Assembly (NCBI GenBank): GCA_966212235.1
Contig: CBIHPP010000002.1
Span: forward strand, 291,499 to 355,498
Direction: 5' to 3'
Length of the DNA: 64,000 nt
From: an uncultured Niastella sp.
GTDB taxonomy: Bacteria > Bacteroidota > Bacteroidia > Chitinophagales > Chitinophagaceae
Shown: one piece after another, positions 53,869 through 53,956 of the stretch
Layout: each line of letters opens with the position of its first letter
How positions within the stretch are numbered: the stretch's first letter is position 1
Made by a program: the position numbers and the translations under genes
The notes under the pieces: generated by a model
Database searches by the model: none
Told to the model about the DNA's origin: nothing
Seen by the model: the letters and a program-made list of their open reading frames with translations, nothing else

Positions 53869-53956
53869 TTGTTCGCAAATTGTTCGTAACTGCTTCGGGA
53901 CTGCTCCGGGTCTTCTTCGCAAATTTGCGAAGAACTTGCGAAGGGTTTGCGAAGAA
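53869..53956. repeat. 11-bp-phased inverted array B, eight contiguous units around a 22-bp palindrome
   Basis: ttgttcgcaaa ttgttcgtaac tgcttcgggac tgctccgggtc ttcttcgcaaa | tttgcgaagaa cttgcgaaggg tttgcgaagaa. Confidence 0.92.

Follow-up and report, generated by a model that had tools for sequence, protein, structure and literature searches.

Array B lies at positions 53869-53956 of a 64,000-nucleotide stretch of DNA from an uncultured Niastella species, a stretch that corresponds to C2:291499-355498 of the host genome (9.77 Mb, 43% G+C) and is referred to here as the window. It is the window copy of a discrete, non-coding element of ~122 bp (B, 53869-53990) that is confined to the genus Niastella. 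The initial annotation treated the array as a feature of this locus and overlooked the main fact, which is that it is one copy of a genus-wide dispersed repeat lying in an inserted, gene-free island. The element consists of eleven abutting 11-bp units, five in a left arm and six in a right arm followed by a trailing G, whose orientation flips at an invariant palindrome. We suggest, tentatively, that B may be a DNA docking platform with helical phasing, which a mosaic repeat of the BIME (bacterial interspersed mosaic element) or BrickBuilt kind has carried along.

When the sequence from 53869 to 53956 is cut every 11 nt it falls exactly into the eight contiguous units that had been described, five left units (TTGTTCGCAAA, TTGTTCGTAAC, TGCTTCGGGAC, TGCTCCGGGTC and TTCTTCGCAAA, in that order) and the first three right units (TTTGCGAAGAA, CTTGCGAAGGG and TTTGCGAAGAA again). 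The annotated order of five TTCG units followed by three CGAA units stands, except that TTCG is exact in four of the five left units, the fourth reading TCCG; CGAA is present in all three right units. TTCG starts at 53872, 53883, 53894 and 53916, all at 5 modulo 11, and CGAA at 53928, 53939 and 53950, plus 53983, all at 6 modulo 11, which is the mirror phase. The CGAA at 53983 is in phase and lies beyond the span first reported. That span proved too short: alignment of 39-50 copies showed that the element runs on for three extra units, GGGTAAACTTA GTCTTTGCTCA GTCCCGAAGGA and a G, to 53989/53990. Both half-arrays were called at period 11 by Tandem Repeats Finder.

The two arms meet at TTCTTCGCAAATTTGCGAAGAA (53913-53934), formed by units 5 and 6 (TTCTTCGCAAA/TTTGCGAAGAA), which equals its own reverse complement and is thus the perfect 22-bp palindrome originally reported. 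It is identical in most copies and constitutes the invariant core of the family. Composition predicts ~2.8 perfect palindromes of at least 22 bp per 9.77-Mb genome, or ~0.02 per 64-kb window, so the palindrome at 53913-53934 is unlikely to be a product of chance; 56 perfect spacer-less palindromes of at least this length were observed in the genome, three of them being copies of B. Left of the core, on the forward strand, are units 1-4 (TTGTTCGCAAA TTGTTCGTAAC TGCTTCGGGAC TGCTCCGGGTC, 53869-53912), and right of it, on the same strand, units 7-11 (53935-53990), comprising two further TTGCGAAG units, GGGTAAnnnnn, GTCTTTGCTCA and GTCCCGAAGGA, in the last of which CGAA appears again in phase. The main half-site of B is TTCGCAA/TTGCGAA. 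A core common to B and to the neighbouring array A (53619-53783) had been proposed; this holds for units 3 and 11 only (TTCGGGAC / GTCCCGAAG) and not for the main half-site.

Anatomy, phase and distribution of the family

Thirty-nine copies of B align without gaps. Conservation begins abruptly at unit 1 and ends one base past unit 11, the information per column dropping to ~0 at both ends and just outside these bounds. The consensus of unit 1 is TTCTTCGCAAc; units 2-4 are variable (TTCTnTTAGnn or TTCGGGA-like), with T1, C3 and T4 always kept; units 5 and 6 are TTCTTCGCAAA and TTTGCGAAGAA; unit 7 is CTTGCGAAGgA, unit 8 is TTTGCGAAGAA, unit 9 is GGGTAAGCnnn, unit 10 is GTCTTTGCTCA and unit 11 is GTCCCGAAGAA, followed by G. 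The five left units all start with T-n-C-T, and TTCGCAA is found in units 1 and 5 and often in unit 2, while units 6-8 are TTGCGAAG and unit 11 restores CGAAGAA in phase. Left arms are of two types. Type I is common to the window copy and to copies on contigs C2, C5, C7, C15 and C22 of the same genome, and an extension to its left (GCTGTGTT..CTCATCT, 53847-53868, forward strand) is conserved among type I copies only. The majority, type II, has TTCTTCGCAAC and then TTCTnTTAGnn units. Since a type I left arm is joined to a majority-type right arm in the window copy, as it is in the C2 copy, the window copy is a recombinant at the palindrome.

The absence of a phase slip within array B, noted from the window alone, extends to the whole family, the strict 11-bp register being kept across 50 copies even where these differ by insertions or deletions. 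Indel phase was scored by the distances of anchors from the palindrome because gaps placed by MAFFT were uninformative, the aligner having chosen mismatches over 11-nt gaps. Of the GGGTAA anchors, 31 are at +44 and two at +33; the last CCCGAAGAA lies at +68 in 21 copies, +79 in three and +67 in one; and 176 of 177 left-arm TTCG/TTAG motifs are in phase. Length differences among copies amount to whole units, two copies being without unit 8 and several having one added unit ahead of the last.

A BLAST search of the spacer against the host genome found seven copies of B, the six besides the window copy being partial or full (C2:167759, C1:687857, C5:265742, C7:109233, C15:159337 and C22:122627). 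Nine of 13 congeneric genomes contain 3-14 matches each, and 27 genomes of other genera contain none. The lack of other copies had been named at the outset as grounds for giving up the proposed function; in the event, many were found, both in this genome and in its congeners. Among 185,579 species representatives the exact 22-mer is limited to Niastella (N. caeni, N. vici, N. populi and Niastella metagenome-assembled genomes) and 'Longitalea luteola', and the 16-bp core was not found in 299 of 300 other Chitinophagales genomes. The exact palindrome is also present on 19 metagenome contigs. Metagenome contigs and genome-contig loci together gave 17 distinct new sequences, 14 of which, further copies from soil metagenome contigs, have the unit architecture of B; the remaining three are a locus of N. 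vici with other 11-nt arms and two unrelated AT-rich occurrences. In the former (contig1, ~40.7 kb; L054 / L020) the 11-nt units beside the 22-bp palindrome are quite different ones, CTGATTCCAAC to its left and TTCCCGAACAA to its right. The palindrome serves as a hub to which arms of various kinds are joined. Searches for viral, phage and plasmid matches to B gave none.

One copy is syntenic in four species, where it lies ~270-310 nt upstream of an orthologous DUF6266 gene. It shows 98%, 81% and 83% identity to the copy of the host genome without gaps, the rest of the spacer being 43-84% identical with many gaps. The higher identity of the element than of its flanks indicates either constraint or continuing conversion between copies; for 17 of the 39 copies the closest relative is in the same genome.

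The 11-bp period is a property of the genome and not of B alone. A search for flip arrays of an exact 4-mer found 12 loci with period 11 and none with periods 10, 12 and 13. Of direct arrays with four or more units there are 35 with period 11, compared with 2-6 for nearby periods that are not multiples. A whole-unit lag test found 14 loci at lag 11, 12 of them outside long open reading frames (ORFs), and none at lags 10, 13, 17, 19 and 23. The period recurs in at least eight unrelated cores (TTCGG, TTCGCAA, CTGGG, CCATT, CCTC, GGTAA, GGGTAGT and others), and these cluster in islands. One period common to unrelated cores points to a physical ruler, for which one turn of underwound DNA or of an A-form helix are candidates. 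Short-period arrays are also in excess genome-wide at exactly 7 nt (389 loci, 75 of them flipping) and 8 nt (142 loci, 44 flipping). An example within the window is 33603-33689, where four GATTTnnn units are followed by four nnnAAATC units; CAAAC heptads that abut start codons are another example. These 7- and 8-nt arrays recall the STRR repeats of cyanobacteria and the TAACTGA heptamer repeats, the latter reportedly present in Beggiatoaceae, Cyanobacteria and a few Bacteroidetes.

Composite islands and DUF6266 cassettes

In the window, B is the right-hand module of a composite repeat made up of module X, array A and B. Module X (53478-53573, forward strand) forms the left end of the composite and contains two boxes ~81 bp apart, the palindrome TTCTATATCGATATAGAA (box 1, 53478-53495) and CTATAACGCAATAG (box 2, 53560-53573). 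The genome contains exactly four copies of box 1, every one of them with a B copy of the same orientation 300-640 nt to its right. These four composites are homologous from a sharp start at box 1 to unit 11 of B; between X and B lies array A, sometimes with a second A-like array. Six further X-B composites were found in other genomes and metagenomes, with both boxes conserved and the 65 nt between them not, a pattern of conserved palindromic boxes around a poorly conserved spacer that looks operator-like. Array A, the middle module, consists of TTCGG and then CCGAA units in 11-bp phase. In one metagenome contig (L089; alignment A1 columns 230-330) its cores are CCCGG / CCGGG in place of TTCGG / CCGAA, a concerted symmetric switch in which all units of both arms changed together. 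Array C (54084-54250), of CTGGG and then CCAGA units in 11-bp phase, is a separate repeat family in the same island with copies on C23, C8, C4, C1 and C15; copies of array A were likewise found elsewhere in the genome. A coding role for the arrays was rejected, as the overlapping ORFs belong to no family and 11-nt indels between copies break any reading frame.

X, A, B and C together form a gene-free island of ~0.9 kb (53400-54320) that is absent from the orthologous locus of nine congeners, in which alignment extends to ~53040 and resumes at ~54320. Upstream of the island is the gene for K76 (53105-53335, forward strand), a basic, lysine/arginine-rich protein of 76 amino acids without family assignment, which has its own strong terminator (53369-53391), and downstream is an extracytoplasmic function (ECF) sigma factor gene (54655-55251, forward strand); both are neighbours outside the element. 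The nine congeners have a K76 homologue and terminator directly ahead of the upstream region of the sigma factor gene, syntenic homologues with their own terminators being present in at least eight of them. One congener (G004) carries a DUF6266 cassette in this spacer and two (G008 and G009) an extra small gene of 121 amino acids. The spacer between a 147-amino-acid lipoprotein-like gene / K76 and the sigma factor gene (53040-54320 compared with L042-L050) thus varies among Niastella species and looks like an insertion hot spot. A second island, on C7, contains X-B and TTACC/GGTAA arrays in 1.2 kb between two convergent genes where the orthologous spacer of four congeners measures 65-120 nt. 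The absence of the window and C7 islands from congeners shows that the islands are acquired DNA. A stretch of ~1.9 kb in another genome (L013, G011:C4:412400-414300) has no ORF of more than 106 amino acids and includes two partial B copies ~900 bp apart, which indicates that array islands can reach 2 kb. A 15-nt inverted repeat at the edges of the window island (53418 / 54265) was considered as a terminal inverted repeat of the family and rejected, there being no such pair elsewhere.

A recurrent setting of B and of similar arrays is the region upstream of DUF6266 genes. Five of the six such regions in the host genome exceed the 95th percentile of lag-11 periodicity and two of them carry B. 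The order is a dyad or direct 11-nt array, short direct repeats, a strongly conserved promoter/leader and then DUF6266, and a like layout was seen in four further sources (two congeners, one metagenome contig and one contig with a 39%-identical paralogue). In four cassettes (G013, G007, a metagenome contig and C22 of the host genome) the TTCG/CGAA dyad array is itself preceded by a gene for a small protein of ~70-195 amino acids. The proteins of G013, G007 and the contig have 69 amino acids each, and a homologue on C10 of the host genome precedes a GGTAA array. These proteins share the pattern ..S.RA.R.L..IRKKLGKAK..IT..EF.....ED.IPYL (L109:218-427; L110, reverse strand, 700-490; L112:2501-2710; G000 C22:121844-122431); the small protein occurs either as a product of ~70 amino acids or as the C-terminal part of a protein of 195 amino acids. 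Judged by its sequence pattern it is possibly a helix-turn-helix protein, and we regard it as a candidate array-binding protein.

In the promoter-proximal module of the DUF6266 cassettes the direct repeat TAAGTTGGTC occurs four times, together with a TAtgTTTG box and a leader that ends in ..ataccggttacaca (G000 C1:687950-688134; L105:2800-2940; C14 of the host genome, upstream of 284212). Its nucleotide sequence is conserved between paralogues with only ~39% protein identity, and it probably represents an activator site with a structured leader. The C1 copy of B and the DUF6266 gene next to it have a large serine recombinase gene (G000 C1:692500-694100) 5.8 kb away, and this region may be part of an integrated element. 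Literature searches found no paper that mentions DUF6266 and, among the papers listed, none that combines Niastella with repeat terms.

A proposed docking platform and its alternatives

If B is a docking platform it would work as double-stranded DNA. The two inverted TTCGCAA half-sites in the palindrome would be the point of nucleation for a dimeric DNA-binding protein, further subunits would join on the same face of the helix at 11-bp, one-turn steps outward on both sides, and this stepwise loading would build a short nucleoprotein filament. The native setting of B would be the upstream control region of the DUF6266 cassettes, between the gene for the small protein of ~70 amino acids and the promoter, and the copy in the window would then be an orphan that arrived as part of the mosaic island. 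Two-sided cooperative loading of a protein had already been proposed in the initial annotation. The geometry is in agreement with it, as the half-sites are inverted at the dyad and then repeat in the same orientation at whole-turn steps on each side, and so are the further copies and their 11-bp phase.

Several observations weigh against such a platform. The analysis identified no protein that binds B. The small cassette protein has no match in Pfam, NCBIfam or PHROG, and its AlphaFold model is unreliable (a single long helix, predicted local distance difference test score (pLDDT) 73, shallow alignment). DUF6266 itself, modelled at pLDDT 86 as a small N-terminal domain and a sandwich resembling a fibronectin type III (FN3) domain, does not look like a DNA binder. 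Outside whole B elements the half-site motif occurs at background frequency, so that there is no regulon of single sites, and three of the seven copies in the host genome lie between convergent genes with nothing obvious to regulate. Slippage between 11-nt repeats would itself give whole-unit indels, so that retention of phase is not independent proof of selection on phase, and gene conversion between copies could account for how well the orthologous copy is conserved. Two candidates for the binding partner were rejected on distribution: a specific DUF6266 paralogue, since B-positive genomes often have no close orthologue and B-negative genomes do have paralogues, and K76, which is single-copy and not co-distributed with B.

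An alternative that we consider unlikely is that B is a transcribed hairpin repeat of the ERIC (enterobacterial repetitive intergenic consensus) or BOX type, acting as RNA or single-stranded DNA, in which alternative-register hairpins (unit 5 with unit 6 or 8, unit 3 with unit 11) alter the stability or termination of neighbouring transcripts. The size and copy number of B resemble those of ERIC, and an A-form helix, with 11 bp to the turn, would fit the 11-nt period. The folds are more stable than those of shuffled sequences on both strands (-46.8 kcal/mol, z -3.3, and -40.0 kcal/mol, z -4.2) and B offers several perfect alternative pairings. The alternative-register hairpin put forward in the initial annotation is accordingly available in sequence, since either unit 6 or unit 8 can serve as the pairing partner of unit 5, but it gains no support from covariation: RNAalifold supports the invariant palindrome only and detects no covariation beyond it. 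Complementary covariation between position 3 of unit 1 and position 9 of unit 6 is present in 33 of 37 copies, but it does no more than tell two lineages apart, and the pair would cross the helix of the palindrome. A further point in favour is the array A copy that switched from TTCGG/CCGAA to CCCGG/CCGGG in both arms together, but a symmetric change of this kind would be just as expected at a site that a protein reads either way round. The arms of B are unequal (five and six units), ~70% complementary overall and poorly so outside the TTCGCAA units, and hairpin alignments of 25 flip 11-nt arrays show 15-20% transversion mismatches between arms. An excess of G:T over A:C mismatches, the mark of G:U pairing, was seen on neither strand of these 25 arrays (83/122 against a null of 80.6 +/- 3.3, P=0.27).

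The 22 copies of B that could be scored lie in eight convergent, five divergent and nine tandem spacers, without orientation bias relative to the flanking genes and with no promoter preference seen. The Bacteroidota -7 box (TAnnTTTG) does not occur in 53300-54700, and sigma-70-type promoter hits in the island region are at the level of shuffled sequence. Terminator-like hits inside B are the repeat hairpins themselves and no terminator frames the island. A scan of 52500-55000 for Rfam families gave only spurious, sub-threshold microRNA look-alikes over array A, which were discarded. Together the sequence tests lean towards a DNA-level rather than an RNA role for B, without proving it.

It is about equally doubtful that B is a purely selfish mosaic repeat with no host function, whether MITE (miniature inverted-repeat transposable element), BIME or BrickBuilt-like, in which the units are relics of slippage or sites of a lost transposase and conservation reflects recent spread and gene conversion. 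The lineage-specific island insertions at the window and C7 loci, the mosaic composition with left-only and right-only homology, the frequency with which the nearest relative is in the same genome, the over-representation of convergent spacers (8/22) and the sharp boundaries are all consistent with this. Against this reading, no consistent direct repeat that could be a target-site duplication was found in the flanks of the 39 copies, the ends of B share an inverted match of only 7 nt (TTCTTCG ... CGAAGAA) and the ends of the X-A-B composite are unrelated. Presence/absence polymorphism was seen for entire islands, at two loci; where the 122-bp element by itself is concerned, a comparison of G009 with G008 yielded no orthologous locus. 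There is no autonomous partner: the end motifs TTCTTCGCAA and TTGTTCGCAA occur outside B at background (18 and 22 observed, 22 expected), and integrase or resolvase genes are not consistently nearby. A link to the REP repeats and their RAYT transposases was also pursued and rejected, as the genome has three Y1 transposase (Y1_Tnp) genes without associated repeats, whose 2-3-kb surroundings match nothing else in it. The lack of phage, plasmid and viral matches, the retention of a syntenic copy in four species with better conservation than its flanks, and the invariance of T1, C3 and T4 even in the variable units also argue against an element that does nothing for its host.

A good deal less probable is that B is a site for site-specific recombination or cassette exchange, at which crossover would take place within the central AAATTT of the palindrome and the phased units would serve as accessory sites, as at res, cer or attC. 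With ~six half-sites over ~120 bp B does resemble a res site. The two arms of the window and C2 copies have different histories with the junction at the palindrome, many BLAST matches start or stop there, and the cassette found at a given chromosomal locus differs between species. The palindrome is, however, the longest identical stretch, so that breakpoints of ordinary homologous exchange would be expected there as well. The family has no linked recombinase, the one large serine recombinase being 5.8 kb from a single copy, the copies are not in cassette arrays, and site-specific recombination between dispersed chromosomal copies would be hazardous. That the arrays form a plasmid-type, parC-like centromere bound by the adjacent K76 is hardly credible: the R1 parC iterons are likewise of 11 bp and a small basic protein gene is directly upstream, but K76 adjoins no other B copy, its homologues hold the same locus in nine congeners without arrays there (including genomes without any B), no partition ATPase is among the neighbours and the copies are dispersed on the chromosome.

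Relation to known repeats and significance

The nearest parallels to B in geometry are one-turn or sub-turn arrays of short sites that are bound cooperatively in other systems, such as the 11-bp iterons of R1 parC/ParR, the direct and inverted heptad arrays of the omega protein and the 11-nt direct repeats of PhoP/PhoB. The ParR, omega and PhoP arrays are read by small dimeric proteins that polymerise along DNA. B shares with them short, abutting, spacer-less units with a fixed period near one helical turn and mixed orientations. It differs in that those arrays lie at defined promoters or centromeres beside the gene for the binding protein, whereas B is dispersed, has sharp ends and is often between convergent genes. 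Among K76 and the neighbouring genes, co-distribution of the array with genes for a binding protein and a partition nucleoside triphosphatase, as in ParR/parC, was not observed, and with respect to a PhoP/PhoB-type operator the 11-bp units are present, but there is no excess of the motif outside whole B elements and eight of the 22 copies lie between convergent genes.

ERIC and the pneumococcal BOX are imperfect palindromes of ~120-130 bp or modular A-B(n)-C repeats, of low to moderate copy number and with copy changes of whole modules, and they act as transcribed RNA hairpins. B is similar in length, in its whole-unit changes and in copy number, and differs in lacking orientation bias, G:U bias and covariation; its 11-nt sub-periodicity is new. 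The REP, BIME and REPIN repeats are described in the sources cited as intergenic mosaics of palindromic units in alternating orientation together with other modules (PMC2817692, PMC3116915), and BIMEs are there described as acting as protein-binding sites (PMC2817692). In logic BIMEs come closest to B, which is a mosaic of this sort, with X, A, B, C and GGTAA-type modules in different combinations at different loci, and like these repeats it favours spaces between convergent genes. It is without the GTAG/CGTC-tagged, GC-rich hairpin of 20-40 nt, it is present in tens and not hundreds of copies, and strict phasing of 11-bp sub-units is a feature of B and not of REP.

BrickBuilt, a minisatellite-bearing MITE of Porphyromonas gingivalis with direct units of 23 nt (Klein et al. 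2015, PMC4596501), is the only named Bacteroidota precedent with which B was compared. Both are repeats of Bacteroidota restricted to a species or genus, always intergenic and present in tens of copies or fewer (PMC4596501), and both have contiguous, spacer-less short tandem units between a distinct leader and tail. The 23-nt direct units of BrickBuilt vary in number and it has small inverted-repeat ends, whereas B has 11-nt units in a nearly fixed number (11), flips orientation at an invariant palindrome and shows no target-site duplication. BrickBuilt had promoter activity (PMC4596501). B is best described as a variant of the interspersed-mosaic-repeat kind that is outside any named family.

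A wider proposal, which is speculative and in our view improbable as it stands, is that Niastella and neighbouring Chitinophagaceae carry an undescribed class of 11-bp flip arrays in which each core would be the docking lattice of a matching paralogue of the small protein, mobile three-part cassettes (small protein, dyad array, DUF6266) inserting in spacers and leaving orphan islands. Few parts of bacterial genomes are as poorly understood as small dispersed repeats. Were B only a selfish repeat, it would still account for a 0.9-kb gene-free stretch and remove an apparent link to the neighbouring genes for a basic protein and a sigma factor. That arrays are in excess genome-wide at exactly 7, 8 and 11 nt suggests that these large soil genomes are shaped by discrete molecular rulers. 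B occurs in a cultivable soil genus, and its legible grammar, with an invariant palindrome, half-sites at one-turn steps, a register kept in 50 copies and a recurring gene context, offers a direct way to look for the protein or RNA activity by which it is read.

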